Part shown: positions 3,371 through 31,810 of the stretch, piece after piece
Position numbering within the stretch: position 1 is the stretch's first letter
Layout of the letters: the number at the start of each line of letters is the position of its first letter
Assembly: GCA_004563595.2 (NCBI GenBank)
Contig: CP042461.1
Location: 30,001-62,000, forward strand
DNA: 32,000 bases
Source of the DNA: Candidatus Saccharimonadota bacterium
Lineage (GTDB): Bacteria; Patescibacteriota; Gracilibacteria; BD1-5; UBA6164
Direction of reading: 5' to 3'
Program-made: the position numbers and the translations under genes
The notes under the pieces: model-generated
Told to the model about the DNA's origin: nothing
The model's database searches: none
The model's input: only the letters and a program-made list of their open reading frames with translations

Positions 3371-3425
3371 AACCATAAGGGTTGTCCTTTAGAAAAAAAA
3401 GTTTACTTATATAAATATAAATGAG

Positions 3426-3650
3426 ATGGCTAGAAAGTCAAAAATTGCTAAGGCAAATAGATTAAAAAAGAATTTTTTACAAGCACTTGCAGATGGTAGA
3501 AAGCCTAAGTTTGCTACAAAGGTTTTTAATAACTGTTGTATCTGTGGGAGAACAAGAGGATACTTAGGTAAATTCGATATTTGTAGAATATGTTTTAGAG
3601 AAAAAGCGAATGCTTGAGAATTACCAGGGGTTAGAAAATCTAGTTGGTAG
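3426..3650 (+). CDS. rpsN: 30S ribosomal protein S14, zinc-binding (type Z-like)
   Basis: The track ORF 3426-3617 continues through TGA 3615-3617 to ...[22 protein letters not shown], the canonical S14 C-terminus. Carries a CxxC...CxxC zinc motif (CCICG...CRIC). Stop TAG at 3648-3650. Confidence 0.9.
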
Positions 3651-3693
3651 TATAAAATTGTTCAAAATAAATTTAATTATTAATTTTGTGGTT

Positions 3694-4086
3694 ATGATAA
3701 TAGATCCTATTGGAGATTTATTAACAAGAATTAGAAATGCATATCTAGCAAGAATTATTGAAGTAAAACTTCCTTATTCTAAATTAAAAGCTGATATCCT
3801 TAAAATTCTTAAAAAGAATAAATATCTCAATGATTTTGAGGTGGTAAGTGAAGAAGATAAAAAATATTTACTTGTTACCTTAAACGATGTTAGAACAACT
3901 AAATATGTTCCTACATTAAAAAGAATTAGTAAACCTGGTCAAAGAATATATATTTGATCTAAGGATATTAAAAAATCTAGAAATGGAGTTTGAATTTATA
4001 TTGTTTCAACACCAAAAGGAGTTGTAACTGGATATGAAGCAAGAACTTTAAACGTAGGTGGAGAACTTTTATGTGAAGTATTCTAA
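3694..4086 (+). CDS. rpsH: 30S ribosomal protein S8
   Basis: [51 protein letters not shown]...[51 protein letters not shown], read through TGA codons. Stop TAA at 4084-4086. Confidence 0.9.
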
Positions 4087-4161
4087 AACCTAAAAAGAGT
4101 TATGAATGAGAAATTATATGAAAAGTATAATTGATCCAGTTTATATATTAAGTAAAAAAAT

Positions 4162-4738: not shown

Positions 4739-5092
4739 ATGACAAGAATGTTAGCAAAAGCATTAAATAGATTAAGAAGAAAAAATAAAATCAGATCAAA
4801 GATCAATGGTACAGCTGTAAGACCTCGTCTAGCAGTATATAGAAGTAATTCAAATATTTACGCTCAACTTATTGATGATGTTACAGGAAAAACTTTATGT
4901 TCTTCTTCTGACTTAAAAATGAAAAAATCAGGAACAAAAACAGATATGGCAAAAAAAGTTGGTGAAGATATGGCAAAAAAAGTATCTGGACTGAAAATTG
5001 CATCAATCGTTTTTGATAGAGGTTGATTCGCATATCATGGAAGAGTAAAAGCTTTAGCTGATGCTCTCAGAGAGAATTGAGTTACAATTTAA
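4739..5092 (+). CDS. rplR: 50S ribosomal protein L18
   Basis: The track ORF 4739-5026 continues through TGA to ...[27 protein letters not shown], the characteristic L18 C-terminus (FDRGG..[9 protein letters not shown]). Confidence 0.9.
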
Positions 5093-5111
5093 TTACCTAA
5101 CACTAATAAAC

Positions 5112-5588
5112 ATGGCTTTTTCTAGAAACGATAATAGAAAATGACAATTTTCAAAACCAAAAAAAGAGTTTAAAGAAGAACTACTTGCTATTGATAGAGT
5201 AACAAGAGTTACAGCTTGAGGGAGACAACTAAGATTTAGAGCTGTTATGGTTATCTGAGATGGAAAGTGAAGAGTTGCTCTTTGAACTGGTAAATCTTGG
5301 GAAGTTGTTGATGCAATTGCTAAAGCTGTATCAAACGCAAAGAAAAATTTAACAAATGTTGCCATTAAGAATGGGACTGTTCCATATAATATTGAAGCAA
5401 AATATAAAGCTGCAAAAGTTATGGTTCATCCTGCTTCAGAATGAACATGAATCATCGCTGGTGGAGCAATGAGAAAAGTTTTAATGGTTGCTTGATATAA
5501 AGATATATTAGCAAAAAGATATGGTTCATCTAACCTTATCAATAATGCAAGAGCTACAATACAAGCACTATCTTCATTTAAAAAATAA
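5112..5588 (+). CDS. rpsE: 30S ribosomal protein S5
   Basis: [73 protein letters not shown].... The S5 motif GDG.G.vg.G.GK is encoded partly by TGA. Stop TAA at 5586-5588. Confidence 0.95.
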
Positions 5589-7640: not shown

Positions 7641-8780
7641 ATGAATAAAATATCATTAATATTGTTAATGGGAGTAGTGAGTTTATTAGCTGCTTGTAAA
7701 GATACTGAAACAGAGTCCATAGTGATTAATGCTTCAGATATTTCTTTAACTGAAGTAAATGCTACGTGTTATCGTATGCTGGATTGTAATTTTTCTATTA
7801 TAATACCTACTCAGATACCTGCTTTTACACTGAATACTTCTCGTAACGCAACTATAACATTACGCCTTGATGGCGAAGAGGATATTGTATTAAATACTGA
7901 TAATGAAGATCAGGTTACTTTTGAATCTGATTTATCAGGATCAGGAATATTGTTTTTTCAAATTCCTAAATCTGGTGAATTTACATTTACGATTTCTGAT
8001 TATAAAGTTGGAGGTGTAAAACAAGAAGTACAAGAATATAAGGTTGCTGTTTCTGAACTTTATGTGTCTACGTTTGAATATAATGGATGGTTTGAACTTG
8101 AAAACCATAAGCTGATCGATGCAAATTATTTTTCTGTTGAGATGGAGCGTCCAGAATCTACTTTAGCAACGCATTATTATTTGAATAGAAAAGATGTGGA
8201 ATGCTTTGAGGGCTATTATAATAATATTTGGGTAAATCATTATTCTCCATGTTATAATATAGGTGGAGATAATAAAGTTATTGCTGAAATATTTTCGAGT
8301 GAACCTGTAGCTGACTCAGAATTGCTTCTTGTTGATTATGAGGTAGAAAGTGGCTATTTCCATTATGGAATTAGATTGAATTCTGAGATCCCATTTTACA
8401 CTCATCAGAGTGAATATACACTTATTCTTTCTGATATTGTGCTTCAGCCAAAGAAGTTGCTTCCAGTTGGAAATTTTGATATTCGTATATCTTATCATGG
8501 TTATGTTGATGATGAGTGGCAGGACATCATTATCCTTACTGAATCTATTTCTCGAGATATTGCTTCATTAGATGTTATTTCATTAACTGAGCAACTAGAA
8601 GTGGGAGATTCCTATAATAGTAGTACTACAGAAATTAGAGCTACTCATGTTGAATCTGGAAATATTTTTGAATTAGCATTTACTTCTTCGGATGTAACGG
8701 ATACTTATTATCATTTCACGTCACCTTTTGGTGAAGCTGAAAGAAATAAATTAGTATTCCATCGAGTTGAAAATTATTAA
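7641..8780 (+). CDS. Hypothetical lipoprotein, 379 aa, contains no TGA codon
   Basis: Intact ORF under both the standard code and code 25. N-terminus MNKISLILLMGVVSLLAAC has a lipobox L-A-A-C. All 18 Gly (my count) are GGN. 7 of 11 Arg codons are CGN, against almost exclusive AGA in neighbouring native genes. Has its own SD and terminator. No family recognised. Confidence 0.8.
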   Translation: MNKISLILLMGVVSLLAACKDTETESIVINASDISLTEVNATCYRMLDCNFSIIIPTQIPAFTLNTSRNATITLRLDGEEDIVLNTDNEDQVTFESDLSGSGILFFQIPKSGEFTFTISDYKVGGVKQEVQEYKVAVSELYVSTFEYNGWFELENHKLIDANYFSVEMERPESTLATHYYLNRKDVECFEGYYNNIWVNHYSPCYNIGGDNKVIAEIFSSEPVADSELLLVDYEVESGYFHYGIRLNSEIPFYTHQSEYTLILSDIVLQPKKLLPVGNFDIRISYHGYVDDEWQDIIILTESISRDIASLDVISLTEQLEVGDSYNSSTTEIRATHVESGNIFELAFTSSDVTDTYYHFTSPFGEAERNKLVFHRVENY

Positions 8781-13782: not shown

Positions 13783-13806
13783 ACTTTATTATTTCAGTTG
13801 TTTTTT

Positions 13807-14478
13807 ATGAAAAAAAGAATTAAAATTATATTTATTGGATTATTTATAATTGCTTTTATAGGGCTACTTTATTTGATGTTTTCATTAGATAACTCTGAAG
13901 AAAACATTGATATTATTAAACCTGTTGATTTATCTAAAGGTACGTTTATACCTAATTTACCGCAACCAAATGAGGAAACAAGGATAAAGTTTATTTATGA
14001 TGGTGATTTATCAGGTGTAATATGGGGTGTTAAAGAACAACCTAAGGACTCAAGCATTGTTTTAAAAGTGTCTGAAGATAAAAAAAATATAAGTTTCGTT
14101 CCTAAAAAACAAGGACGTTACATATTAGAAGCGAGAGATCAAGAGAGTAATTCTAAAAGAGAGTTTTCTATAGCTGTATATAAGAGTTTATTAATTGATA
14201 AAAATAAAGTAAATAATAACGGAATAGTGCAAAATCAAAGATGGATTGAATCATCTGCCCTTCTTGAAGATGAAATTATTACCCTTCTTGAATCTAATGC
14301 TTATAGTGAATTGAATTATATTGGATATAAAAAAGATATATTTGGAGGGTTTCTTATTGAATTTGACGAGACAAACCCTGAAGCTTTCAAGCAGATTGAA
14401 TTGTTAAAATTAGATCAAAATATAGATGATGTAAAAAGTAGAAGAGATTGGAATTATTTTAAATATTCCATAAATTAA
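13807..14478 (+). CDS. Hypothetical N-terminally membrane-anchored or secreted protein, 223 aa, no TGA codon
   Basis: Intact in the standard-code track (13798-14478); ATG 13807 preferred (MKKRIKIIFIGLFIIAFIGLLYLMFSL...). All 11 Gly (my count) are GGN. Sits directly upstream of the giant ORF. No family recognised. Confidence 0.7.
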   Translation: MKKRIKIIFIGLFIIAFIGLLYLMFSLDNSEENIDIIKPVDLSKGTFIPNLPQPNEETRIKFIYDGDLSGVIWGVKEQPKDSSIVLKVSEDKKNISFVPKKQGRYILEARDQESNSKREFSIAVYKSLLIDKNKVNNNGIVQNQRWIESSALLEDEIITLLESNAYSELNYIGYKKDIFGGFLIEFDETNPEAFKQIELLKLDQNIDDVKSRRDWNYFKYSIN

Positions 14479-14556
14479 AATATAAGATTTAGCAGCTTAA
14501 ATTTCATAAAATAATGCATATTTTCTGTACACAAAAATAGTACAAAAAATGTTTGT

Positions 14557-14597
14557 AAAAAGGAGTTTTTTTCGTAAAATGTTAAAAACTCCTTTTT
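14557..14597 (+). terminator. Rho-independent terminator-like hairpin between the 13807 gene and the giant ORF
   Basis: Perfect 14-bp stem AAAAAGGAGTTTTT (14557-14570) / AAAAACTCCTTTTT (14584-14597), 13-nt loop, T-rich tail. A possible -35 TTTGTA (14552-14557) and -10 TAAAAT (14575-14580), 17 nt apart, overlap the hairpin; this is low confidence. Confidence 0.7.
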
Positions 14598-14625: not shown

Positions 14626-17600
14626 ATGAGCTACTCAAAGATCCAAAAATTTTTATCAAGTCTTGTGCTTTTTAGTATCCTTTTTTCTATCACTGTTAGA
14701 GTACCTTTTTATAACTTTAGTGCTTTTGCTGGAAGTTCAGATTTTTATGATATAGTCTCAGTAATTGTTGAAGAGGAGATATATGATGATATAAAAATGG
14801 AAGTTAATAGATATGCAGCAGATATAGAGGGAGTATTAGATAATACAAAAGTAATTATTCTTCCTACTCCAAAAGATACTGACGTTTTTAATATTGCATC
14901 TGTAAATGAGGCTTTATATTTCGAGTGATATAAATGAGTAGAGAAAACGAACTTTGAATCAAAATTAGTTTGAACAGTGATTGTCGGAGATATAGGATTG
15001 CCCGTTGTATATGATGGTAATAATTCTTCAAAAACTATTCTTCCATTTGTTGATTTTGAAGATAAAGCATATATCTATAATCATTCAACGAAAAAATACG
15101 AAAAAAACTCAGGGAATGCAAATGGTTTACAAGCTGAAATATGGCATGGCCTCATTTCTCCAAATTTTTGAGATGACAAAAAAAATCTATCGTGACTCAA
15201 GGATTACTTCGATAAGAATCATGATTATTATGAATGAACAGGAAATTTTGACTGAGCAAATGGTCTTATAAATTGAAATATATGAGAAGGGAATCCCGTA
15301 GGATATGATCCAAATGTATTTTACTTTGATGCATTTAGGGAGTCAAAAGCCCTTAATTATAATAGTTTTGTTGGTTATAAATGATATCTAGAAAATAAAG
15401 AAGATATTGTCTACAATAGATTTAGTAATAGCTTAGCAGAAAAACTAAAAGACCAAGTTTTATGAAACTCAAACGATCAAATATGAGATTTACTTCAATC
15501 TGTTGCTCCTGATTTAGATGCGGGCTCACTTTCTCAATGACCAGACCTATCAAATACACCAGATATTCAATCAAGGCATGTGACTCAAAAAATAGCAAAG
15601 AAATTTATTGAAATTTTTGCGGGAGGAGCTTTGTGAGACTTTAGAAAAAATGTCCATAATGCATGACGTTATAATTGAATATGAGCAGAGGTAAATATGG
15701 ATATGATTCCATATTTTGTTACGGTACTCGATTCTGTAAATGATGAAGTTATAAAAGATGTTACCAGTGAGCTGGAAAATAAAATTGATGATTTGGTGAA
15801 AACTGAATTACAAGAAGATATATATGTTCCAACTATTTTAGAAGAATCAAATGCATATATTGATAGGTATAGAACATCAAATAATGGAAGTAGTAGGGAT
15901 GAGAATCTTTCGTATATAGACTATCAAACAAATATTCTGTACTGAATCCAGGCATCAAATATAACTGATGCGCTTCAATGTAGTATTTATAGAGGAGCTA
16001 CATATAACTGATGAACCCTTGTTGAAGCAAATAGGTGATTAAATATATCTCTTGTTACAGGTGATGTGGCACTCTTGGAAAATGAATCTATCAGTTGTCT
16101 ACAGGCTATTGAATCATGAGATTCGCTCAATTGATATTGGGGAAAAAATACCTGATTAAATTTAGATAGTGCAGCAGCTTGAACTTCAGGTTTACAATTA
16201 AAAGAGCATGATTTGAATGGTTCTATTCAACCTCTTTTTGACCTCGTTGGTTCAAGAGCAGTAGATAATACGGATAATAACCCATCGTACCTTGATTGTT
16301 TTGATAATAACTTCTTTGTTTCACGTGAGTATACTTTGAGTGGTGATAACACAAGTAGCAGACAAGATAGATTTACTACACTTACCTATGGATTACCAAT
16401 ATCCGGTAACTCGGCTGTAAATTGGAGCTGTAAAACAGTATCAAAGAAGTATGACTATACAAGGAAATATAATGATTTAAATGCAGAATGAAAATGTAGC
16501 GATGAAATATGTGTTGATTGAAAAAATAAAATATTTTTTAAAAAAATACCATCTTATATAGAACATAAATCCCCAACTGTAGATGAATTAAAAATTGAAA
16601 TCGAGAGTGGTATTACTCCGTCACTTCCAATTGATAGAGATAGATATATTGATTTTCAATGAAAAGGGGGGAATTATAAAAAAATAAATTACCCATATTT
16701 ATTCAGATTAACAGTTGAAGAAGGAGATGAACTCAGTACTAAAAATATTGAAAAAGCATTGACTAAATACCTTGATTCTAAAAAGAGTGAATTATGAGAT
16801 TTTGATCTGGTGAATTTTTTAAAATCTAAAGAAGACCAGTCAATAAACATCTGATGAGAAACAAAAACATTGAGTTATTACGATACATTGATTTTTGCGA
16901 TTTATTGGAATAATTTAAATACAGTCTCTTCAAAGTATAAATTTGTTTTTGAAAATTATCTTTCAGATCAACTTTGATCAGATGATGATAATTTTTATTT
17001 AGCAAAAAATAAAAAACAATATGAACTTGCGTATATTTGAGCTCCATGAGATGCACAAAATATGTATGTAAAGTTAGATCCAGAAGAAAAAGCAGAGAAT
17101 CCATATAGCGAAGTATTGAGTAAAAACAGCACTTTATCTACCCAGTTGCTTGGCTCAAATATTTGAATTTCAGAAAACCTAGGGAATGAATGAGTATTTC
17201 AATGTGCTCCACCTGAATGAGTTCCTATTTTTGAATGGGTGCCAGCTCTTGTATGTTGGATTTGAAACATGCTTCCTCCAACGATTTCTATATCTGATTG
17301 AGTGTGTGGACCCAGTTTATTGTCAGCTGATGAAAGACAAGAAATATTTGAGTGTTCTGGAGATGTAAATAAAAATGGTATTAATGATTGTATTGAAAAT
17401 AAATTACAATGAGGAAGTTTAGAACTAAAAACATCTTCAGATAAATACTACTATAACAAATCATGATCCCTCACTTCTCAGATCAAAGATAAAAACTGAA
17501 AAGTAGTCAAATTAGATAGTGCCAGTGAAGTTCATTTCGAACTCGTAAAACTAGAAATAAAAAAAGATAAAAATAAAGAACTCACTTCATCAAACACAGA

Positions 17601-20600
17601 AGTTATCTATGATACACAAAATAAAAATAATTTTGATCTTACAAAAGAATACATTTATTTTAAAAATGGAAAAGCAAAAGTAGCTTTATGAGAAGTAAAT
17701 TATGCTTTTGTTTCAAAAAATGAAGACGTGAATGCTTATTTTAAAGCTTCTGTTGAAACTTATGATAACCAAGAAAAGAAGGAAATATTTTTAGAGTCAG
17801 AGGAAATACAGATTTCAGTAAGAGGTGAAAGGCTCTTTACTTCAAGTTATAAAGTAGAGCAAGATAACTGATGAGTACATATAAATGTTTGAGAAAACTC
17901 TGTAAAAGTGAGTGATAAAATAAATATCTTTCTTGTCGATAAAGATAAACAAGATGTGAATGACATTTCAAAAAAAATTAGTTTTTCTTCAGTGTCATCA
18001 GAAAAAATGATACTTTCTTTAGAAAATATTTCTGATCTAGGAAAAACAACTCCTATTTCTTACCCAATAGCATTACAAATATCTCGAGATGGAGTGACTC
18101 TAGATACTTTCACTGTTCATGAGTCTGAAATGTGAGAGTTTAAGAATTTAGCTTCATTAGAAAAATCTTGAACCTATACTTTTGAGATACAAGATAATGA
18201 TTGATTTATATCAACACAAGATATAAATTTGATAGCAGAAGAACCAAGCGATCTACAAATACAGCTATGATCTACTCTTATTGAGGCAGGTTGAAATATT
18301 ACTACAAATATAATAAGTATATTAGATAAGTTCTGAAACCCTGTTATATGAGAGTTTTTAGACTTAGATATTGATATAGATGGTGCTTGATTGCTCTTTG
18401 AAGAAAATGAAAAAGATAATATATCATTACAAGTTTTAGAGTGATATAAAGTTTTTAGGCTACAGTCAACAGGTTCAGAATGAACAAATACTATCAAAGT
18501 AAATGTATGAGATGGATTTGGAAAAACACTTGCGAGTGCTCAGTCTGAAATCCAAGTATTAGATAAGATACAAACAGTTTTAAAACCTTTAGATTCAAAT
18601 ATTAGAGTAGGTGGGAACAGCTACAAATATGAGCTGAGTTTAAGGGACTCTAGGTGAAAAATTCTTTCAAATTTTAATTCAAGAGTGTATCTTGGAATAC
18701 AAAAAAACTATGGTTCAGCGATATCTCCATACGTTGAAATAAAAGGTGGAAGAGCTGAATTAGAATTTAAAACAGCAACTATAGCATGAGAAGTACCATT
18801 TGAGTTTCAAATAGAATGATTATGAAGAATTATTACAAAAAATATAACTATTCTTCCGGATGCAGCAATTAAAATTGATATGTCACTATCAAAGTCAAAA
18901 ATTGAGGCTTCAAAAGATGAATTTTCTCTTTTGAAAGTGGAACTAAAAGATAGATACTGAAATATTGTTCGTACTGATAACACTACAAACACAAAATTAG
19001 AGATTTTAGATCAATACAAAAACATTATTAGTTGAGATATATTATCTCAAACAGTACAAGCATGAGTATCTACATATAAGATTTTTTGAACAGAAAATCC
19101 ATGAACAGCCTATTTCAAAATTTCTACAAACCCATGACTTGAAAATAACGGCTTTGTTATAAGTGATGGTGCCTGAGAAATTACAGTGCAGTGAGTTTGA
19201 GAAAATATGGGAAAAATAGAGACATTCTATTTCTGGAATGCTCAAAGAATACAAGATACTAGATATAATGCGTTATATACTACTTTGTTGGGTGCTCCAT
19301 ATTGAGATGTGACTCAAGAAGATTACCTTGCATGAAGTCTATTGTTTCAAAAAGACAATAGGTCCCTTGCTGTTAGTTCATTATTAAATAGCCCATATTG
19401 ATATAGTGATATTATTGATATTAACCCTGAAGGATGAATAAAATTTGTTTATAATGATTCAGATGTTACTCAAGATATTGAATCAAGCATATGATTTGAT
19501 GAGAATAATTTGTTTATTAACCTATTCAATGCCTCATTATCTACATATTTATGAAAAGTTTATTTTAATTTTCCAAGTGATACAAACTTACAAGTTTGTG
19601 AAGGAACAAGCTTGTCTATTTGTGAAATAAGTTCAGAAAAAACAAGTATTTCTCTTCAGAGTAACGCCCAGGATTATTCTGCATATTTAGATTGAGATCT
19701 TTTAATACTACAGGACAAGTTTTGAAAAAAAATATTAGATATCGATTCAAGTGGACATATTAATAAATATTGAATTGTTGATTTTGTCTTGAGGAGTACA
19801 AATAATGGAAAATATCTTGATCTTGATATTCTATCATGAGATACAAATATAGGTTCTCTATGATTTCATTTTGTTGATGCAAATATAAATGTCTCAAGAG
19901 ATCAAAATAAATTTGAGAATAAAATTAAAAACCTTAAAAATAGTATATTAGTTTTATTATCTACGAATTCATACCAAACAAGAGATTCTTATAATTGAGA
20001 TCAATCAAGCAAAATCATCTATTACAATGATCCATTTTCTACAAAATATAGTTTAAATAACTTTACTAAAAACAATTCATTTTGATACGAAAACTTTGCA
20101 AAAAAATGATGACTATGATGGTCAGAAGAAAATAAAACTTTGCTGAACTTTGCAGCATGAAAGAGCGTTTGAGAATCTATAAAAGATTACTCAAGTTTTT
20201 CAGTTGTAAACTTATGAGACCCCGTACTTCAACTAAAAAAATCACCAAAAAAATTACCAAAAACTATAAAGGATAGGAAGTTTGATAGGACAATATGAAA
20301 CCAACTTACCTGAGATAAAGATATTCTTTCATATCAAGTATTTGATTATAATGCAGATGAAATTGATGACATTTTATTAATCAAAAATAATAATTACTTC
20401 AAGCTTTTAGAAAATACTCTCAATGATCAGAAATTTTTAGATACCTGAAATCTTGCTTATATATCTGATCTTGGAAATAAGGATTTAGTAAAAACTTGAG
20501 ATTTCACATGAGATAATTATGAAGATATCTTCTTTGTTAATAAAAATGGAGATCCCTTCTTATTAAATAATCAGGAAAAAGATTTTGTTCGAATTTCATT

Positions 20601-23600
20601 GAAAGATCAGTTTCAGTTAGAATGAAAGATTATTAGAGTGGAGAAATTTGATATGGATAATGATAAAATAACAGACCTTGTTATTTTAGATGACTCATGA
20701 GAGATCCATATATTTTATTGAACTTTAGGTTCTTGAAATCCAGAATTTAAAAAACTCCTTGTATCCGATTCTTATTGAATTAAATTAAGCTCTGAGATCA
20801 GAAGTGATAATGGTTTTATCTATTTTGATGGATTATCATCAGTTGAAAGTTCAGATGATTATAATGCAGACTTATTAAAAGATAATGAAGAATACCTTCG
20901 TGAATTACAAAAGAATATTAATTCTAATAGTCTTCCTCAAAATACGTCTAGTCAAGAGATAAATGAATGACTTGTGGATAAACTTATTTATGTGACTGCA
21001 TCATACTGAACATCAGATCAAGAAGACATCAGTACAGAGAGTGTCCTTTGAAATATAAATCTGACATCATCAGCTGAAACGAGTGATTCACTTGCTCTTA
21101 CAAATACTACCCTCAGTAATTTTATTAATTCAAATGATAGCTATGTAAGTCTTCCTGCTAGGCTTCCAATTACAAAACAAACATCGTTTATAAAAAGTGA
21201 TTATTCATCACTTGTCTGATTAGATGTGGAGAAGAAGTTTATAGATAGAAATGAAGGATTCTTAAAGTCTGATGATGTTGTGGATGTGGAGATCGTTTTA
21301 AAAAATACTTCAAATCAAATTGCAAACAATGTTGTATATTTAGAAAAACTAGATCAAATTTTTACTTTGAATACAGAAACTATTCGTGTATCTTCGGATG
21401 CAAATATAGCTTTTTGAGTCCCTTGATATGATTTTGTAATTGATAATTTTTCACTTGTTCCGGGTTGAACGATTACTATAAATTATGAAACAAAAACAAA
21501 AGCTTTGAAATACGGATATCTGAAAGTATGACTATTTGAAAAGGGTGAATTATGAGATGATTTTTATGGTGATATTATTATAAAAAAGAATAATCAAAAC
21601 TGTTCTCAGCCACAAACAATTTTAAAATCGCAAACCAAAAGAACATATACACAATGAGTAAAAGAAGTTTCATGTGATGAAAATAAAAATGCTCTTCCAG
21701 ATGAGATAGAAAAGAATACAGAAGATTCTGACAATAATGGTATACCAGATTATATAGATAATTTAACGGATCCAAACAACATTGACGCTCAAGCTGAGTA
21801 TGCAAAGAATGCACTTGCAGATGTAAACAAATGAGCAGTATCAGAATTTGATGATAGTCCGAATATTGTATGAGACTTATCAGAAATGAATGCAAATATA
21901 GATGAAACTCTGGACAAAGTTGATAATATACTCCAAGGATTTAGTTGTGGTTTTTGATGATGAGGGTGTATAGCAACACCTTTGAACTGGGCTCCACTAG
22001 CACCAGGTTGAGATCCAACATTATTTTGAGTTCCAGTATGAGACGGTTTACAAGTAGGAGAATGACTCCCGATTTTTTCAGCACTTACATGGTTCTGAAT
22101 ATGACCACTCTGTTTACCAATTGCAGTATGGCCTCCAAGTCCATTGTGACCAGGATGTTGAGCAACTCTATGAGCATGAGGGTATTTATGAACTATGAAT
22201 CCAACAAATTTTTTCAGACTGTTTATAACACCAACATTAACTTGATGAATGTGAACGGCAATGTGTTTTGGAGCTCCACCAATGCTTGCTTGATATGCAA
22301 ATATGCCATGACTGAGTCCTCTTTTACCTGGATGAAACTGTATTGTAACAGCTGCACCCCTAGGAACATGTAGTGACGATGGATCAGATTGATATGTTGC
22401 ATGAATTTGAGAATCAGATATTACAACAGGAAGCTTTGGATTAATCAACTGAAATTGTTCTCCTCAAGTATCAAAAAGCCAAACACTTGATTCGGAATTT
22501 GTACAAGATTATTTACAGTACAAAACAACAGGCTATAAATCAGATACGTTATTTGATAGATATAAAGAGTCTTTTACAAAAATTTCTGAAAATACAAATG
22601 GGAGAGGATGATTTTCTTCTGAACCCTTGTTAAGTATAAATTGAGAATGAAATGGAGACCAAGTTGATATAGCTATTGACTTTTCAGCAGGACAAGATTG
22701 AGACTTTTCTGATGTTTTACAAATACAGCAAACAAGAATTTCCCCTTTTCCAGATTTCTTGATGTGATGGGTAACGAGGCAAATTGAAGAGATTGTCACA
22801 AAATTAACAGATTTCCCAACTGTGTTTGTTATTCTTCCAGATTTACAATGAGTATTAGATTCAGGAATATTAGATGGGTGAGATAATAAAGCTGAAAATA
22901 GAGAGGATGCATTTGTTGTTAATAAAAATATAGCAAATATTACATGAACTGGTTGAATAAATACAGTAAATTCTTGAATAAAAGAAGCATATAATTATAT
23001 GTCTAATATTCCTCTGATTCAAATTGAACAAGAAGTTATTAATATAAGTGTTCCTTATCCAGAAGAGGAAAGTATAAATAGGACTCTGAAGTCTTGGGGG
23101 AATACAGTAGATAACTGGACAGATGAATTAGAAAGAGCAAAGTGAGCATGGACTTTATGAGCTTTCTGTAGCTGAACATGAGCAGAAAAATCAAGATGTG
23201 AACAAGAAAATGCTATCTGAGAAAAAATTCTTATCGATACTCAAGGTTTAATATCTTCTTTGGAAAGAAATATAGACGTACTGAATGATTATAAAACTTT
23301 CCCAGAAAAACTTGGAGAATTAGTAAATAAAAAACAAGATTATTTAGAACAAATTTTATGTAATGTTGAATCTATTTCATGAATTTTAGGTGGCCGGATT
23401 TGAAAAAATGGAAAAAGATTTAAAGCATGGGTTGAAGCATACGTACTTATAAAAGCAATTTTAAAATCTTGGCAAGTATTGATAGATGTTTTTATTGATT
23501 ATGAGGCAGAATGTCACGAATGTAAAAATGAGAGAGGTGACCTGATGACTTATATATGGAAACTCATTAGTGTAATTATTCCAAAAATACCAGTTATTCA

Positions 23601-26600
23601 ATTTCCTAAATGGCCAGACGTTATTATTGATTTACATAATATCCGTGCATCATTAAGTATTACCCTCCCAGAGTTTCAGTTTACAACCAGGCCAATATTA
23701 TTACCGACACTTCCTGATTTAATTTTACCAGATGTTCCAACGGTGAATATTACTCTTCCAGAGCTTCCCGTGCTCCCAACTTTGGAAATACCTGAGCTTC
23801 CGGATCTCCCAACTCTTCCAACGGTTGAGCTTCCAAACTTACCACCAGCACCTACTCTTCCAAAAATGTTTGCTTCTTTAGAATGAGTATTAGATATTCT
23901 CAAGTTAGTCACAAAAGCAATGTGTATTTTGAAAACAAGCCCATTTGTTCCAGAGTGGAGAGCTTGAGATCAAATCGCATTTTTGACAGAAAGGCAATGA
24001 TATCTCCCAACAGATTTTATAGATATTAATCTTCCTCAATTTTCATTTCCATTTGTTGATGCGATAAAAATTACCAGCTATGTAAATTTAGAATTTGAAA
24101 CAGATTTTATATTAGAACTGGCAAGGCAAGTTGCTATGCCTATTAATTGAGTTTGAAACAATTTCACACAGATGCTTGATATTGAGGTTTCAGATTTGGA
24201 TTTTTCAATTCTTCCATCAAGTGTTGATATAAATATCTGAAGTGAAGGAATAGAGGGAGATATTTCTCAAAATTCACAAAATAAAAAAGCTGCAATATTT
24301 GCAACTCTTGTTGTAAAGTGAATATGAGAACTATATTCATATCTTGAAACAAATAAAAATGAAACAGTTTCTAATGATGAGTTTAAACAATTGATTTTTA
24401 CAGCTTTATCATCAAAGAGTATAAGTTCAAATCCAAAGTTGGATAATTTGAGATCAGTATGGAAAGAAGTTGAAAGCATGACATATTCAAAAGAAGATAA
24501 GATCATTGAAGCACTTGAGAAAAATAACTTTAAAAAATTTGAATTATTAAAAGAAATACTCTCAACTGAAATACAAAAAACGAAAGAACAGGAGAAAAAC
24601 CTTCAAAAATTTATTGAGCCATCTTATATTACTCAAGTAGCATTTGAGCAATCAAGTGATGTAAAATATTACAATGAGAAGCTCAGAAAATATAATGAAA
24701 AATTTATCACTGCGGCAACGTCTCTTCAAGATGGAAATGGAAATGAACAGAGAAAAGAGTTGAAGCAAGAATGAGATAGGCTTCTCTCAAATATAAAGAC
24801 ACCACTCAGTCAATATGCGGAGTGATTTAATAATAATTCATTGTCAGCAGTAACGAGCACCGTACCAACAACAAGTTCTTCTACAAATAGTTGTAGTGCT
24901 CAGTCACAATCTGCATATCATTATAATTATAAAGGATTGTATGTTCTTGAGGATAATATCAGTTATAGACTCTTTGATTATTTGGATGAATTAGATGGAA
25001 ACGAAGTAAATACACTTATAGATTTTGATAATGATTCTGATGATGATCTTATCTATATGACAAATGGTCAGATTTTTATAAAAGAAAATTTAAATAATTC
25101 TCCAATAAAAAGAAAAACTTTATGATGACCTATAGTTATTGAGAGTGACGATAATAAATTTTATGATACAACTCTGAGTGAAGAACCAATCTTTTATGAA
25201 TCTGTAAATAACTTTGAGGAAGTATCAGTAGATAATAGCTCAATTAACATGAGATTTTCAAAAGCTGCTTATAACCACGGGAAAAACTATAGAGTGGAAT
25301 TTTATGATATCACTGATAAGTTTCTTCATATTTGAGATGATAGCTATTTTCCAAAAAAGAAAAAAAAGTATCTTATAGATGCATTTGCTAATAGAGATGA
25401 AATTACATATGTAAAAGAGAATGAGACCTATAAGACGAGTAAGAATTTAGCATATATAAAGAATATTTGAATCCTAAAAGGGATAAAATTACAGACAAAG
25501 AATTTAATTAATATCAAAGATAGCTTAGAGGAAGGAAAAATAGTGAATATATCTCCTCTTACGAAACTATATGCGTGAAGGTCTTCATTTGTACTAAAAT
25601 ATTTAGAAGAATGATCTCAAGAGCTTCAATGACTCGTAGTAGCAAAACATCAAAATATTGAGATGAAACAAGCTATTAAAGTAATATGAATTACTTGAGA
25701 TGCATATATAAAAGGAACAACAGATATATTTTTAGAATGAGAAGAAATAAGATGATATTTACATAAACCTCTTTTTGCTTGAACGTGAATAAAACATGAT
25801 TCATCTATTCATTTATCAGAGAAACCATATGTTGATATCATGTACTATGATGATACAGAAGTTTGATTAGACTTTAATGAAATAAATGATTATAAAATAT
25901 ATGACTTATGATCAAGTAATCAAGATTACTTGATCAACGTTTCAAGAGAGAATGACTACTATTACTCTAAGATAAGAACTTTTAAAGAATGAGTTTTTGG
26001 AACCTATTCAAAGCCAATACTTCTTTCTCCACAAAAAGAAGCGGATTCAAGCTCCCCAGAACTTTCTCTGTGAACTGTAATAAGAGTGCCTGTATATCAA
26101 AAAAAGATAATTGATATTACAGAAAATATATATGAGGATTCATGAATAAGAAATATAAATGAAGTACGTATCGACATGGACTTGAGTGTTGATAGTGATT
26201 GAGATGGGAATCCAAAAAATGATGCAGATAATATGACAAGCGATACAATAAATGTGGCACAAAGTCTTACAAGTATACAGATTGAATTCGGTGCATTTGA
26301 GACATTATTTAAAAGAAATATTTGAATTACTCTTGTAGATAATAATAACAATGCTTCATATACTGAAGCTCCGTTAGAAGTATATGCTCCTAATCCTGAG
26401 ATACAGTTATACAATAATAATATCATACAATGAAGCTTGGATGAAGAGCTTACAAATGAACCGGTTCATTTGTATAGATATAGATGATGAACTATTTCAA
26501 AACTTGAAAATATAGATGGTGAGGATATTTCATTAACGAATAATGGGATATACGATTTTGATATGAACATTGATTCAAAAAATTTACTTCTTACTCAGAA

Positions 26601-27111
26601 TGATCTAATTATCGCTGAAATAGATGAAAATACCTGAAAAATAGATATCAAAAATCCTCTTTCTCAAATAGAAGTACTTTCATCTAATGATATAAATAAT
26701 GATTCGGCGTATCCAAAAATGACCCTTCAGAAAGGTTGAGAAGATGTATATTATCAATATTTACAATTCTCTTCAGACACGAGTATACAAGTTGTGAGTA
26801 ACTTTGATGATTTAGATAATGAATGAATGTATGTACAATTTACGAATGGTACAGATTTTAATTATTATCAGATCCCTGAATGATCAGTGTACGCTCCATG
26901 ATCTCTGAGTATCTATAGAATAACAAATCCAAATAAAGATCCGTTATTTACTTTCTTCAAAGATGGTAGAATAAATACATGGAATGAATTCTATAGACTA
27001 GAATATTCTACATACGGGGACTATATAGTATTGAAGCTCATAGATAAAAACTTTAATAAAGAAGTTGCAAAGGTATTATTTAAAGTAGATTGAGAGTATG
27101 TAATGAAATAA
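14626..27111 (+). CDS. Giant secreted/cell-surface protein, 4161 aa (putative adhesin or host-interaction protein)
   Basis: With TGA=Gly, one uninterrupted frame runs from ATG 14626 to TAA 27109-27111, with no in-frame TAA/TAG in my manual read. Nine supplied ORF fragments are all in this frame (starts 14626, 14977, 15697, 16213, 17908, 21226, 23479, 24391, 24841). N-terminal hydrophobic signal/anchor MSYSKIQKFLSSLVLFSILFSITV. Internal Ig-like repeats, FG-GAP-like and Ca-binding motifs, a hydrophobic G/P/W/C module and an LP repeat. Terminator immediately downstream. Confidence 0.8.
23761..23859 (+). repeat. Three imperfect in-frame 33-nt tandem repeats (11-aa Leu-Pro units) inside the giant ORF
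   Basis: Units 23761-23793, 23794-23826 and 23827-23859 each begin GAGCTTCC. They encode ELPVLPTLEIP / ELPDLPTLPTV / ELPNLPPAPTL. Units 1 and 2 share 21/33 nt by my alignment. Degenerate LP-rich sequence extends upstream to about 23640. Confidence 0.8.
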
Positions 27112-27114
27112 AAA

Positions 27115-27144
27115 AGTTCCTTTCATTTGGAAGGAGCTTTTTTA
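27115..27144 (+). terminator. Rho-independent terminator of the giant ORF
   Basis: AGTTCCTT (27115-27122) pairs with AAGGAGCT (27131-27138), including one G-U wobble. 8-nt loop, then a T-run from 27139. Begins 4 nt after the stop codon. Confidence 0.6.
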
Positions 27145-27239
27145 TAAAATTGTTTTGCTTAATGTCAAAAATTTTATAGAATACGCTTGCTTCGTTAAGA
27201 GGTATACTTATAACTTGGTAAAAAGGAGAATTACCAAAT

Positions 27240-27695
27240 ATGAACAATAAGATCATATTGGCTATTACTATTAGTGTTTTATTTATTTCAAATTTACAGG
27301 CAGAGGCATTAGAGAAAAAGTCATTTGAGTTGGAGTGGTATTATGCTCCACAGCAAGTAAAAGCAATACAGAGTAGGATATTTTTCCATGATGAACAAAT
27401 AAATACTACAAGTACTACTATTTCTATTGAAAATAAATCGGATGAAACATTAGTTGGAGTTGCATATCGATTACTTCTTAAAAACCCGGATACTCAACCA
27501 TTGAGTGCTTCCTGTAATGATAATGAACCACGGAATATAGTTATTGATAAAAAAACTGGAGATAGTTACTTTGAACTTCCTATTGAAGGTTTACAAGTTG
27601 GTCATATTGTGATTTGCCAACTTAATTTTATAAGATCTACTATTCCTCCTTTCTATACGGTTCTTGTAGATGAGGGCGAGTTAATTGAGCCTTAG
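27240..27695 (+). CDS. Hypothetical secreted protein, 151 aa, no TGA codon
   Basis: Intact in the standard-code track. Signal peptide MNNKIILAITISVLFISNLQA/EA. Strong SD AGGAG at 27224-27228. Possible promoter TTGCTT (27187-27192), 16 nt, TATAAC (27209-27214). All 5 Gly are GGN. Has its own perfect terminator. No family recognised. Confidence 0.75.
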   Translation: MNNKIILAITISVLFISNLQAEALEKKSFELEWYYAPQQVKAIQSRIFFHDEQINTTSTTISIENKSDETLVGVAYRLLLKNPDTQPLSASCNDNEPRNIVIDKKTGDSYFELPIEGLQVGHIVICQLNFIRSTIPPFYTVLVDEGELIEP

Positions 27696-27746: not shown

Positions 27747-30392
27747 TTATTTCAATACTTCTTTAAAATCAACTGTATTAGTGGGAGTATCGATTTCTAC
27801 TTTTTTATAATCTATAGTAGAGGTATTATCCATTTCAAACTTGATGATATTTGCATCGTTGACGTTGATATTAAAATAGATATTTTCATTATCTTTATTT
27901 CACCTTTGATCAACATCAATATTTAGGTTTCAAGTCACTTCAGTGACTGTATTATTTATTTCTTTTTGTTCCCAAGTTGAATAAGTATTTATATAAAACT
28001 TTTCATTAAAGTTTCATTGTATATCAATTCACCTTTCATATCTTTTATTATCTGATCATCAATCTTTCATAGCTTTTCCCACTATATTTGAATTTGCTTC
28101 AAAACAAGTAGAGAGTTTATATTTTTGATTTTTAATGCCATTTTTATCACTTCATACTTCATAAATATATCAAAACTTACATCCATTGATTTCAATGGCT
28201 CCTGAAGGATCTTTCGGAGTATTAGATAAGAACATAGAGGTGTTTTTATGAAAATTTTCTTTTGTTGGGTATTCACCATTATCTTGGTACGACTGTTCTA
28301 TAGCCGAAATAAGATGTAATACATCTGTTACTCTTACGGAGTCTCTTGCTTTTTCTATTTGAGTATTTTTGTCAAATATTGATGCAACTTTTGGATCAAT
28401 ACTAAAATTATTATTTAATATTAAGTAATCTTTTTCATATGATCAGTCAGTAGATATAGAGATGAAATCTTCTCACTTAGGAGTTTTTAAAACTGTAGTT
28501 CATGTAATTATTGTATTTTTTAGAGTCAGAGACGAATGAGCTGTTTCATATTCTTTTCCTGTCAGTTCATATTTATAAGTATCATAGTTATACTCTTTTT
28601 CTTTTGCAAATGATTTGAAATCAAGATCTAGGTCACTAAAATTTTTATTTGTAGTATGCCATACTCATTGAAGAGAAATATCTGATTTATAGTATTTTCC
28701 ATTATAATGATTTATAAAACTTATTTTTGGTTTTGAAAAATCAAATGAACCATCCAGATATTCAGTATTTGTTTTTAGGTCTGTTCAATCATAATTAATC
28801 ACTAGGTTTTGTAATTCATTTGAAGAATTTGTAGCTCATGATATGTTTCCAGAAACTTTTTTTGATGGAACATATGATCACTTCCTTGTATCATAATTAT
28901 ATTTATACTCTTTGTTGCTGTATTCAAAGTCTCATAAAATCTTTTTATTTTTTAAGTTCAGTGTTGTTTTTAATTCATTTTTTGAGCTTGAGATATTTCA
29001 CTTGTATTCGATCATTGTGAATTTATTATTTGAAAGAGTGGAAGTAAATATTATATCTGCTTCTCCTTTATTTGCATAAAAATCTATGTTCAGATGAGAA
29101 TTCTTTTTATAATCGAGTGTAAAGTTTTCATTTGGATATCTTGCTTGATCAGGAGAAATATTGATTGATGCTTCTTTGATATCAGAATCAGAGAATATGA
29201 TAAATCATTCAATATTATCAATTCATGTCTTTGTAATTCACTCAAAACCAAGTTTTGAGTATGTTCATAACTCTATATACATACTTCACGTTTTTGCGAA
29301 CTCTCTTAACATGTTGTTGTATTGTGAATCACTACATGTTCTTCCATTAAATGGATCAAATTTATTTGCAAGTTCTTTGAGGCTATCACATGCATATCTT
29401 GTAGGAGTCAGATAATATTTATCACCATCTTTTTTATATGCTTGAAACATAGGCTGAGATAAAATTTCTTTTCCATCAGCAAGAACTTTGTGAGGAGCCA
29501 GGCTTCTTAATATTTTCATTGCTTGTTCAGAATTTTTATCATTATATTTGATGTATTTATTCTCTTTTGCAATTTCTTCAAGCTTATCTAAAGTATCTTT
29601 AAAATTATCAATATTTTCTTCAGAAATTATATCAAGATCTTTTATTAATACATACATATTTCCATCTTTTGAAATGAAATCTAGAAAGTTTTTAAATTCT
29701 AACTTTATTGCGTCCTGTCATTTCGGCGCAGCATCTAATAATGCTGAGATATGTCATTCTACTTGAGAATCAAAATTCGATGCTTTTACTATGTAATCAT
29801 CAAGTTTAAATTCAGCTTTTATTGTTCAAATTTTTTCTTGGTCTATATCTAGATTCATTCTTAAATCACCTTTTGCTTCGTAGTTTGATAATTCTTCAAA
29901 ATCTTTTATCAGTTTTTCTAAGCCTTTTGTTCCTTTATTAAGAAGGTTTAGTTGAATTTTTACCAGTTTGTCATTTACTTTTTCTTGTTCACTTCTCGAT
30001 AGAGTAGATGTTTCAAATTCCTTTAATATAAGTTCAGTTGTATCATATTGTAATAGTGCAAGCTTAACTTTTGATGCAAGGTAGTTTACTATCTTGAGTG
30101 TTTTTTTTGCTTTGAGAGAATTATTTCATGATAGTTTTCATTGAGCGAGAGAAAGTCTCTTTGACAACTTTTGTAATTTTTTCTCACTTTTGCTGAGAGT
30201 AGCAATTACTGTATCTATACTTTTTATATATTTCTCTCCACGAGATATACTTTTTAAAGCAGTTCTTGATATATCCACTTTATTAATGAGAATAGTTTCT
30301 TCTAAAGAAGTCTCTGCATAGGCAAAAGAACCACTTTGAAAAATAAAAGCTATTAACAATAATGAAGTGAAACACTCCTTAATAATCTTCAT
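27747..30392 (-). CDS. Secreted protein, 881 aa, with a type IV pilin-like globular domain embedded near the C-terminus
   Basis: Minus-strand frame is open from ATG 30392 (alternative ATG 30422) to TAA at 27747-27749 with TGA=Gly. Track fragments 30138-30422(-) and 29286-29657(-) are in this frame. Signal peptide MKIIKECFTSLLLIAFIFQSGSFAYA/ETS. The N-terminal part is Lys/Glu/Leu-rich and helix-like. Residues encoded around 28080-28360 read ARDSVRVTDVLHLISAIEQSYQDNGEYP...SNTPKDPSGA...GCKFGYIYEV...YKLSTCFEANS...DGGSDNKRYERG. Confidence 0.8.
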
Positions 30393-30457
30393 AAAATAAG
30401 AGTTTAAAAAATAATAACCCATCTATTTTATTTTTTGTTGACCATTAATCAAATAAA

Positions 30458-31810
30458 TTATTTAGTTAATGAGTAATGCTTTCAAATATATGCTCATATT
30501 ATTAAAAACAGTAAATAACTTGTTGCTGCTTCTTCAAATGCGTGAGTGAAATTTGCCATGAAACATAAGCTCAAAAAAGCAGTGAGGAGTCATATAGAAA
30601 AATAGGTGGTTGTTTTTTGCATAATTTTATACAAAGCTATACTAATGAATATGAGTAAGCCAAGAAAGAAAAAGAGTCATAAAAAAGATTGTTCTAAAAG
30701 TATCTGTACATACCAGTTTTCGGGCAAGTACTTATATACTTCTATAGAGTTTATTGAACTCTTCCATCATACATCAGTTTCAAGTGGACCAATTTGAGTT
30801 GCAGGACCACTTGTTCATACTCCACTTCCAATGGGGTTATATAAAAACTTTTTTACAGCAAGAGCAAGATTATCAAATCTATTTATGAGAGATCATAAAT
30901 GAAGAAAAAGGCCTCTTTTTATAAACATAATGATAGTTGCAGAAACTGCTATGAGTATAGGAACTATTTTAAGCACCTTTTTTTGCTTGCTCGTGAGCTT
31001 TCACTTAAATATGAATTTATTCAGAAAGTAAAAGAATATAAATGCTCATATCATTAATCCCAACATAGATGTTTTTGAATATGAGAAAAAGACTGATGTG
31101 ACAACAAATAATGAAGGAATGGATATAAAGATACTTCTATATATATGATTTTTTACGGTATCTAATATATATCAAATATATAAAAAGAGGAATACAATAA
31201 GGAATACGGAAAACCTTATTGGTCAACCAAAAGAAGCTTGAAATCTATGATGTCATGAAACATTTTGAGAAAAACTAATACAAGAATTTGCATTATAGGT
31301 AGATACTTTATCTGAGTATCCAAAAAAATCTGAAACAAGAGCTATGTCTCCAAAAATATACCATGGAAGAAAAATAATTAAAATGAGTCATGTTGATGCA
31401 AATACACTTTTTAAAATGGTATCAATTGAATTTCTGATGCTGATAAGAGAAAAACCTGCAATGAGGGTAAAAATAAAAAATACATCATATTTAAACCCCA
31501 GAAGGTTATTTATCCCAACAGAAAAGAATGGAAAAAATATATAGAGGAGTGACGAAAATATAAACGCAACAGAGAATCATAATATATAGTTCCCTTGAAA
31601 TATCTTTCATATTTTAAAATGGTACCTTTTTAAAATACTATATGTTCAAATGAAAAGTAAAAAAATAACTATAAACTCTTTCCAGAATCTAATAATATCA
31701 GTATTGGCTCATAATTTACACTTTAAAATTGTAACAAATAATGCATGGAGGGGTAAAAAGAATGCAAAAAGTATGAGTAAAAGCTTCATAGGAATGTTTC
31801 AGAGTTTCAT
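30458..31810 (-). CDS. O-antigen ligase-like (Wzy_C family) polytopic membrane protein
   Basis: Minus-strand frame with TGA=Gly: MKLGNIPMKLLLILFAFFLPLHALFVTILK...SYSKTSMLGLMIGAFIFFYF...LYNPIGSGVGTSGPATQ...PENWYVQILLEQSFLGLFFFLGLLIFISIAL...*. Many hydrophobic segments, arranged as I remember for O-antigen ligase/polymerase-like proteins. Length 1353 nt, in frame. Alternative start ATG 31789. Confidence 0.75.

Follow-up and report, generated by a model that had tools for sequence, protein, structure and literature searches.

We analysed a 32,000-nucleotide (nt) stretch of contig CP042461.1 (positions 30,001 to 62,000 of the forward strand, hereafter the window), focusing on a single giant gene carried by its + strand at 14626-27111. 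The gene encodes an acidic protein of 4161 amino acids (aa) (463 kDa, pI 4.6) which, by sequence comparison, is a member of an unnamed family of colinear giant proteins of Gracilibacteria (code 25, Absconditabacteria-type lineages included) and of the sister Peregrinibacteria. As the family is colinear across a class-level radiation and evolves with a ratio of nonsynonymous to synonymous substitution rates (dN/dS) of about 0.1, the whole molecule is functionally constrained. Its most conserved 750 aa match nothing described.

Reading frame and genetic code

The frame opens at ATG 14626, the closest in-frame stop on its 5' side being a TAA at 14575, and runs over 12,486 nt, i.e. 4161 sense codons and a TAA stop. 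It contains 191 in-frame TGA codons and neither TAA nor TAG, so that the standard code splits it into 192 pieces. The start agrees with homologue N-termini (MSYSKIQKFLSS in the window vs MKYSKFQKFLSS and MSYIKIQKILSS). Under code 25, where only TAA and TAG are stops, the second-longest open reading frame (ORF) of the window reaches 891 aa and the other five frames within the giant gene hold no ORF longer than 232 aa, so a frame of 4161 codons is far beyond chance.

The sense of TGA was assessed in a 50-sequence alignment, scoring only homologue residues specified by ordinary codons. Gly makes up 40 % of the residues opposite the 191 TGA columns vs a background of 5 %, and no Trp enrichment was found at these columns in the homologue alignment. 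TGA serves for Gly more often than any other codon in the gene (191 TGA vs 120 GGN) and all housekeeping genes of the window (GC content 29 %) require TGA as a sense codon. The reading of TGA as Gly (code 25) holds in the giant gene.

A first-pass annotation, made from the window sequence alone, had read an open frame from ATG 14626 to TAA 27109-27111 with TGA as Gly, occupying about 39 % of the window, and had attributed it to a Gracilibacteria-type candidate phyla radiation (CPR) bacterium using code 25. All these points were confirmed, the last one by the TGA test together with the labels of related genomes. It had also named an overlooked in-frame TAA/TAG, a frameshift and a chimeric assembly as possible flaws; none was found, the frame being clean and 49 full-length orthologues being colinear throughout.

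A family of colinear, full-length orthologues

One genome per GTDB species was scanned with the conserved module of the protein (aa 2437-2590, see below); 96 genomes matched and 80 loci were kept, labelled as Gracilibacteria, Peribacteria, Patescibacteria group or plain 'bacterium'. ORF statistics were based on a comparison set of 82 related loci. The module lies inside a complete stop-to-stop ORF in 53 of the 82 (median 4171 aa, most 3,970-4,570 aa), and in these its position is always aa ~2,320-2,850. Family genomes span 21-59 % GC and from 2 to 269 in-frame TGA per ORF. The gene takes up ~1 % of genomes of ~1.0-1.4 Mb, as in the complete genome CP060226.1 (1.36 Mb), where the orthologue represents ~1 % of the chromosome.

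Forty-nine full-length orthologues align along the entire giant protein (identity 26-49 %, occupancy mostly >0.8), and this end-to-end alignment excludes frameshift, chimera and gene fusion. Among the genomes scanned, a single metagenome-assembled genome (MAG) contributed two loci, so the giant gene is essentially single-copy. The 'mosaic layout' described in the first-pass annotation was accordingly not borne out: the protein is a colinear, apparently single-copy orthologue found in ~80 or more species and constrained throughout. The well-characterised homologue of most of the length, by which it would have been refuted, was not found: whole-length homologues are many and none is characterised. 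The window protein has the single ORF of ~3,900-4,600 aa that code-25 members share and all signature motifs of the family (aa 2437-3190), together with the conserved K-x-QK followed by a hydrophobic N-terminus.

The closest relative found (P0001, a partial orthologue) is 59 % identical over aa ~2293-3185. When aa 2401-3200 were used as query, four relatives were retrieved among 5.8 billion proteins, a yield for which flooding of the word filter by the Leu-Pro repeat is probably responsible; one of the four lies on a contig of 54 % GC which, under code 25, is one open frame throughout.

Several loci depart from the common pattern. The two loci of one MAG (L051 and L057) lie on contigs of nearly equal length (JAYWFD010000127 and JAYWFD010000128) and could be co-binned strain variants or a duplication. 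Three ORFs measure 3,363-3,419 aa with the module at ~1,630-1,730 (L053, L066, L075), two ~2,100 aa (L018, L076) and one 5,034 aa (L081); these atypical lengths could reflect TAA/TAG created by sequencing errors, real N-terminal truncation, or expansion. Finally, locus L002 (1-8845 of a contig from JGI 3300008680) is near-identical to the oral GN02-873-type orthologue L032, begins ~365 aa upstream of the module and has unrelated genes in front of it (alpha/beta hydrolase, PP2C, PepSY, PycTM); either this variant is truncated at its 5' end or the contig is chimeric.

A wider superfamily was recovered by a HMMER search with P0001 (587 representatives at E ≤ 1e-3, 267 at E ≤ 1e-30). It includes more than 60 giants (3,200-6,066 aa) that use the standard code, have normal Trp and Gly contents, are colinear with the window protein and align with it at aa 57-470, 640-890, 1200-2080, 2190-2580, 2700-3185 and 3770-4020. 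The core at aa 2700-3185 is shared by 61 of 61 such giants (E down to 1e-83), and the hydrophobic module, in divergent form, by 58 of 61. Most representatives carry no source name, so that the spread was read from the named ones, i.e. 'S-layer homology domain-containing protein' of Candidatus Peregrinibacteria/Gracilibacteria, or 'TIGR01451 family' repeat proteins.

Why the family is hidden in protein databases

A profile of the module run against a large protein set gave 65 matches, all of them fragments of 84-290 aa, because standard-code gene calling cuts the ORFs at TGA. Many full-length members of the representative library (e.g. P0071-P0074, P0082, P0087) contain 5-7 % Trp and 1-2 % Gly, which is explained by TGA having been read as Trp (code 4) and not as Gly (code 25). 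Correctly translated NCBI entries are few and are named 'hypothetical protein' or 'VCBS repeat-containing protein'. The use of TGA for glycine in these genomes thus keeps most of the family out of sight in protein databases, and family-level analyses of code-25 lineages need retranslation.

Selective constraint

Three orthologue pairs (~93 % identical at the protein level) gave dN/dS values of 0.105, 0.077 and 0.072 (Nei-Gojobori method, code 25), with values of 0.03-0.17 in all 300-codon windows; in these windows of the three pairs, no diversifying selection was detected on any 'tip' region. Compared within the same genome pairs, the seryl-tRNA synthetase (SerRS) is 73-77 % identical vs 46-49 % for the giant protein, which therefore evolves faster than a core enzyme, yet is constrained throughout. 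Such even purifying selection, together with conservation across the class, is more in keeping with a fixed component of the envelope than with a variable adhesin of host specificity.

Along the protein, three stretches stand out as best conserved, namely aa 2451-2600 (identity 0.6), 2701-2750 and 2901-3150 (0.54-0.63); the linker (aa 2050-2200) and the Lys/Glu-rich stretch (aa 3200-3400) are the least conserved.

Architecture of the giant protein

All features below are on the + strand. The protein begins with a putative signal peptide or anchor (aa 1-35, 14626-14730), predicted, like its cleavage, from sequence only; it comprises K-x-QK, a 16-residue h-region, a conserved (T/S)-x-(R/H/Q)-x-P motif, then AFA, the predicted cleavage point and G. 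Its hydrophobic segment (aa 6-31) is the sole consistently hydrophobic stretch in the family (median Kyte-Doolittle hydropathy, KD, 1.79). A conserved N-terminal region follows (aa 36-930, 14731-17415), with no Pfam or PDB match. Near its end, it carries a Cys-clamped hydrophobic motif of invariant alignment columns (aa 860-925, 17203-17400; C831...C865 of A3), which reads C-x-PP-x-GV..W..A..C..PP..G-x-C and is followed by a Ca-loop-like D-x-N-x-N-G-x-x-D-x-x-E stretch (DVNKNGINDCIE). Loops of the form D-x-D/N-x-D/N-G-x-x-D occur at aa 913-924, ~2366-2378 and ~3855-3868.

The next part resembles a stalk of divergent Ig-like domains (aa ~930-1530, 17413-19215), where Invasin_D3 scores 22 bits, below its cutoff of 33. 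After a conserved region delimited by the orthologue alignment and without family match (aa ~1531-1899, 19216-20322), FG-GAP/VCBS-like repeats are found at aa ~1900-2060 (20323-20805): FG-GAP_3 (PF13517) reaches 24.0 bits at aa 1959-2020 (cutoff 26.9) in the giant, and passes the cutoff at the colinear place in the orthologues P0084 and P0099 (28.2 and 32.8 bits). A poorly conserved Ser/Thr/Asn-rich linker (aa 2061-2199, 20806-21222; identity 0.12-0.24) leads to a DUF11-like Ig domain (aa ~2200-2310), recognised from homologue matches, and then to a Cys pair and a thrombospondin type 3 (TSP3)-like loop, together spanning 21223-21933; the D-rich loop, SDNNGIPDYID, stands after the Cys pair within aa ~2311-2436. 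No DUF11 match exceeded the cutoff in the giant (Pfam, NCBIfam); in the homologue P0134, DUF11 scores 21.2 bits vs a cutoff of 24.6, and JGI calls two homologues 'TIGR01451 family'. P0134 also gives 41.7 bits for Invasin_D3 and 83.8 bits for GH2_C5 at colinear positions. The order of Pfam domains in homologues (Invasin_D3/Big/GH2_C5 Ig-like, FG-GAP_3, DUF11/DUF7507, core) is that of the weak matches of the window protein.

The most conserved part starts with a hydrophobic Gly/Pro/Cys module (aa 2437-2590, 21934-22395; identity 0.6, five invariant Cys) with the motifs G-x-SCGFGGGxC..P.NWAPLAPG ... GAGGYLG ... R..TPT.T..G..CF ... GGNC.V ... C.DDGSDG. A conserved motif, R-I-S-x-FPDF-M-x-W-x-RQ-x-EE...L...P (aa 2700-2750, 22723-22875), marks the beginning of the superfamily-wide core. 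It is followed by a bundle of five long helices (aa ~2809-2992, 23050-23601), as predicted in the model of the proxy P0001; its last two helices would form a hairpin whose turn bears the invariant C2963-x-x-C2966-x-N. An FPKWPD motif (aa 2993-2998) and a Leu-Pro repeat (aa ~3005-3082) come next (23602-23871, ~25 invariant P/L columns), the proline spacing of the repeat being invariant in the orthologue alignment. The post-repeat domain (aa 3083-3190, 23872-24195) carries the motif LKL..K..C...SPFVPE..GD.IA..TERQ...DF....P.F. GC content rises locally to 34 % at window positions 22001-24000 vs ~29 % elsewhere; this interval overlaps the Gly/Pro-rich module and the Leu-Pro repeat, and the rise is due to amino-acid composition and not to foreign DNA.

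The remainder consists of a poorly conserved Lys/Glu-rich helical stretch, probably a coiled coil (aa ~3200-3400, 24223-24825), a Ser/Thr linker recognised by its composition (aa ~3405-3432, 24838-24921) and a C-terminal region (aa 3433-4161, 24922-27108) without family match or S-layer homology (SLH) domain, which includes FG-GAP-like (DFDNDSDDDLIY) and TSP3-like (DSDGDGNPKNDAD) loops.

Module and helical hairpin have median KD values of 1.3-1.4, and only 10-26 % of orthologues reach the transmembrane (TM) grade of 1.6 there. The central hydrophobic segments were considered as TM anchor and rejected, TM-grade hydrophobicity not being conserved; with so few orthologues at this grade, it is improbable that module and hairpin span the membrane permanently.

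Searches with the whole protein against Pfam, NCBIfam and PDB sequences gave nothing significant, nor did profiles of aa 30-930, 2590-3200 and 3430-4161 against the same three databases. TSP3_bac (PF18884) has no Pfam match in the giant, where D-rich loops are visible, and is significant in homologues. SLH (PF00395) was absent from the window giant and from Gracilibacteria orthologues at E ≤ 0.1; sister-lineage homologues carry SLH and TSP3_bac in an extra C-terminal tail (SLH e.g. in P0195 and P0134). The giant showed no RTX-type Pfam match, does not qualify as an adhesin of the RTX/type I secretion system (T1SS) class and contains no LPXTG; no beta-barrel or LysM anchor appeared in any family scan, and the protein does not classify as invasin/intimin-type (PF09134, PF02369). 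Self-BLAST of the giant protein revealed no internal tandem repeats.

The segments that the first-pass annotation had listed were found in place: an N-terminal hydrophobic signal or anchor (aa 6-31, its hydrophobicity conserved across the family), the Cys-rich DVNKNGINDC segment (aa 860-925), Ig-like and FG-GAP-like segments (as the weak Invasin_D3 and FG-GAP_3 matches above), the Gly/Pro/Trp/Cys module (aa 2437-2590), the Leu-Pro repeat (aa ~3005-3082), the Lys/Glu-rich helical stretch (aa ~3290-3390) and the Ser/Thr linker (aa ~3405-3432). Its view that most of the length belongs to no recognised family agrees with the sequence and profile searches, and export, which it had assumed, is supported by the signal-like N-terminus, extracellular-type modules, conserved Cys pairs and SLH in sister lineages.

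Structure models

Two proxies were modelled in place of the window protein itself, i.e. P0070 (aa 36-1012, 51 % identical) and P0001 (59 %). The P0070 model has a mean predicted local distance difference test score (pLDDT) of 41.6, with values below 50 for 719 of 1010 residues, and is confident only in its first ~165 residues. For the first ~165 aa of the N-terminal region, the model thereby predicts a flavodoxin-like alpha/beta domain, in which W173-H174 is invariant. For P0001, the mean pLDDT is 53.5, reaching ~90 in the D-rich loop region, 61-89 in the beta-rich module and 57-74 in the five long helices; the Leu-Pro repeat has low pLDDT and is unmodelled. Foldseek searches of the proxy models against PDB and BFVD gave nothing significant (all E ≥ 0.02), a negative result that constitutes weak evidence because model quality is low.

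A clan-CD peptidase (C25 gingipain or C11 clostripain) was considered for the N-terminus and rejected: W-H-G is invariant, yet the expected Cys is F, H, Y, K or E, there is no Pfam match, and Foldseek gave a C11 protease only at E = 0.32 and rank 7.

Genomic neighbourhood and flanking DNA

Downstream of the giant gene lie two convergent genes on the - strand. The first, orf891 (27747-30422), has an N-terminal hydrophobic segment and is conserved beside the giant gene in 13 related loci; near aa 700, a pilin-like stretch (D..R..D...I..A.E.Y..DNGEYP) was noticed by eye. The second, orf450 (30458-31810), is hydrophobic, probably encodes a membrane protein and is conserved downstream in 16 loci. 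In relatives, orf891 and orf450 are followed by GT4 and PMT_2-type glycosyltransferases, and the two genes may encode functional partners of the giant protein or belong to an envelope-glycan cluster. In the clade of the window, serS is found upstream and the convergent orf891 and orf450 downstream; in another clade, the giant gene has der/engA on the same strand, 51 nt downstream of it, and ftsH beyond. The surroundings of the giant gene are thus, overall, housekeeping and envelope-glycan genes.

On the 5' side, an inverted repeat (AAAAAGGAGTTTTT...AAAAACTCCTTTTT, 14548-14596) stands between orf226 and the giant start, and could be the terminator of the upstream gene or a regulatory hairpin. 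It overlaps a promoter-like site, TTGTAA-16-TAAAAT (14553-14580, + strand), proposed from its match to the consensus only. On the 3' side, a terminator-like hairpin with a 17 bp stem (27108-27145, + strand) overlaps the stop codon, in agreement with the gene having its own terminator, as had been noted at first pass. No match was obtained in tRNA and Rfam scans of the window.

The other window genes comprise a ribosomal-protein operon with secY, def, ruvB, a uridine-kinase-family gene, a FemAB-family gene and serS. The ORFs of rpsH (3610-4086, + strand) and rpsE (5061-5588, + strand) are mechanical calls with N-terminal extensions, that of rpsE overlapping rplR; the true starts are probably downstream of the called ones (e.g. 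MIIDPIGD for S8). Three small ORFs are free of TGA: 7641-8780, 13798-14478 and 27240-27695 (all + strand), with 18, 11 and 5 GGN Gly codons, respectively; in every other window gene, TGA represents 18-86 % of Gly codons. All three carry signal- or lipoprotein-like N-termini and two of them directly flank the giant gene. No homologues were found in the 82 related loci or in Pfam, and these ORFs may have been acquired recently from a donor using the standard code, or may not be genes.

Role of the giant protein

Host attachment or attack, as proposed at first pass, is not refuted and may hold, but the data speak against an adhesin of variable and mosaic kind. The reading that we favour, at about an even chance, is that of a fixed envelope fibre with a conserved central core serving assembly and/or contact with the membrane or envelope at the host junction. 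A surface-fibre or envelope role is proposed because of the extracellular-type modules, the SLH domains of sister-lineage homologues and published observations on giant proteins. Giant proteins of Absconditabacteria have been predicted to reside in the membrane or on the surface of the cell, which looks fibrous (PMC8080830; PMC13059738), and are inferred to give it this fibrous aspect (PMC8080830); the largest Vampirococcus protein is a hypothetical protein of 4163 aa (PMC8080830); Peribacter genomes encode large extracellular proteins (PMC4736985); and VCBS-annotated Gracilibacteria proteins, which may or may not belong to the giant family, have been detected in a metaproteome (PMC11452946).

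In such a scheme, the protein would be exported by Sec and would form a long, acidic surface fibre stiffened by Ca2+, with its N-terminal segment and/or non-covalent wall binding tethering it to the envelope. The central core, i.e. a disulfide-locked beta module, the CxxC helical bundle, FPKWPD and a Leu-Pro rod, would be the functional heart, acting in self-assembly and/or in contact with lipids or envelope surfaces at the host-cell junction. With a conserved core placed there, host contact would be plausible, mediated by an apparatus that is conserved and not by a recognition tip that varies.

Several points weigh against this fibre. Export and localisation are, for every family member, inferred from sequence, and the window protein lacks SLH, LPXTG and any conserved TM segment beyond the N-terminus. 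The lack of a known fold in the core is a weak statement, the proxy models being mostly of low confidence. The spread of the family, as read from named representatives, covers Gracilibacteria and Peregrinibacteria. Lastly, purifying selection this strong and even would be no less compatible with an enzyme or with a purely structural role.

Viral class II fusion loops and the hairpins of colicin-type or diphtheria-T-type pore formers offer a precedent for another, rather unlikely role, in which the protein would be a host-membrane attack or junction device: the module would act as a class II fusion loop and the hairpin as a toxin insertion hairpin, opening or fusing the prey membrane for feeding. 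The module is indeed the most conserved piece, rich in Gly, Pro, Cys and aromatic residues and predicted to be beta-rich, the five long helices end in a relatively hydrophobic hairpin made by the last two, and a lipid target would account for the conservation. However, module and hairpin remain below TM grade in most orthologues (see the KD values above), the hairpin helices bear invariant polar residues (E, K, Q, D), and Foldseek gave no toxin or fusogen match (E ≥ 0.02 throughout). Relatives in culture live as epibiotic predators and empty the cytoplasm of their host (PMC8080830; PMC12428579), yet the family also occurs in Peregrinibacteria, where predation has not been reported.

The same doubtful standing is given to a purely structural scaffold, associated with the envelope or surface (S-) layer and devoid of direct host recognition, which would serve envelope spacing, cell shape, or the stacking and cohesion of daughter cells. 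Class-wide conservation in near-single copy, a uniform dN/dS of ~0.1 with no variable tip, SLH domains in sister-lineage homologues, and the glycan and envelope genes adjoining the giant gene all speak for it, and relatives form stacks of attached cells (PMC8080830). On the other hand, the window protein has no SLH, and it carries modules of FG-GAP, Ig and DUF11 type, as adhesins typically do. Lattice-forming S-layer proteins are moreover usually much shorter and poorly conserved, which also counts against a scaffold.

Far less probable is a giant surface-tethered enzyme, in which aa 36-930 would be a hydrolase (a clan-CD-like peptidase, or one degrading wall or polysaccharide) borne on a long stalk. 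The predicted flavodoxin-like alpha/beta fold of the N-terminal 165 aa, the invariant W173-H174, D143, D235, NAGRY motif and E residues, and the C11 cysteine protease among the weak Foldseek matches (rank 7, E = 0.32) would suit such an enzyme, and a preprint links giant genes of predatory Omnitrophota to wall degradation (bioRxiv 10.1101/2023.11.21.568195). Nevertheless, no Pfam, NCBIfam or PDB match was obtained at any threshold, homologues have F, H, Y, K or E where the clan-CD catalytic Cys would follow FYFDA, and Foldseek returned nothing significant for a P0070 model with pLDDT below 50 in 719 of 1010 residues.

An artefact (assembly chimera, pseudogene, or several genes joined by a wrong sense reading of TGA), in whose favour stands nothing other than the breaking of the frame into 192 pieces by the standard code, is close to impossible in view of the full-length colinear orthologues of ~50 independent assemblies (21-59 % GC, some with 2-7 TGA per >4,100 codons), the alignment of TGA columns to Gly, a dN/dS of ~0.1 and the need for a sense TGA in all housekeeping genes of the window.

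Returning to the envelope fibre, a bolder extension of it, which we hold to be improbable at this stage, is that the family constitutes an ancient, lineage-defining envelope machine with a core of novel fold acting as host junction, attachment device and possibly feeding conduit. If true, this machine would be the conserved molecular basis of the episymbiont or predator lifestyle, overlooked through code-25 shredding or TGA=Trp mistranslation. Giant surface proteins were already known in these lineages, including the 4163-aa Vampirococcus protein; the highly conserved core is undescribed. Our literature search found no description of the colinear giant family or of its core modules, and no family model covers it. 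About 1 % of a ~1 Mb genome is spent on one protein of at least 4,000 aa, and such constraint is unusual for a 'giant adhesin'. For the question of how episymbiotic and predatory CPR bacteria attach to and exploit their hosts, the family provides a concrete, conserved candidate in lineages with cultured predator-host pairs.

Comparison with known systems

The nearest counterparts are the Gracilibacteria proteins MCD5380636.1 ('VCBS repeat-containing protein') and MDD2487531.1 ('hypothetical protein'), and the partial N8455_00755 and PHV23_05865, all orthologues (26-59 % identity). They share module order, signature motifs and similar length with the window protein, and none is characterised. 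VAMP_16_20 of Vampirococcus lugosii (4163 aa, 'hypothetical protein'), the largest protein of a related predator, is of near-equal length, and orthology, suggested by this length, is a lead only. The SLH giants of Candidatus Peregrinibacteria, MBI2464194.1 (4699 aa) and MEI7510804.1 (4057 aa), are colinear with the window protein over the N-terminus, the Ig/FG-GAP/DUF11 part, the module, the core and part of the C-terminus. They differ from it by the use of the standard code, by an additional tail that carries SLH, TSP3_bac and, in one of them, FecR, and by a far more divergent module, CGFGGGxC and NWAP being absent by pattern search.

Likeness to FG-GAP/VCBS (integrin-alpha-type) proteins is confined to aa ~1900-2060, i.e. 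less than 4 % of the window protein. The NCBI name 'VCBS repeat-containing' of one orthologue stems from this FG-GAP_3 stretch and says nothing on the other 96 %.

Proteins of the Ebh, SiiE, LapA, BapA and intimin/invasin type are giant modular adhesins, presumed to be fibrillar. Judging from its sequence, the window protein resembles them in being very large, acidic and probably exported, with Ig-like domains and Ca-binding-type loops. Unlike these giant adhesins, it has no near-identical tandem repeats, and no RTX/T1SS signal, LPXTG or beta-barrel anchor was seen; unlike the LapA/SiiE type, it has a signal-like segment at the N-terminus. Its most conserved 750 aa have no counterpart in the giant adhesins, from which it is further set apart as a single orthologue under uniform purifying selection.

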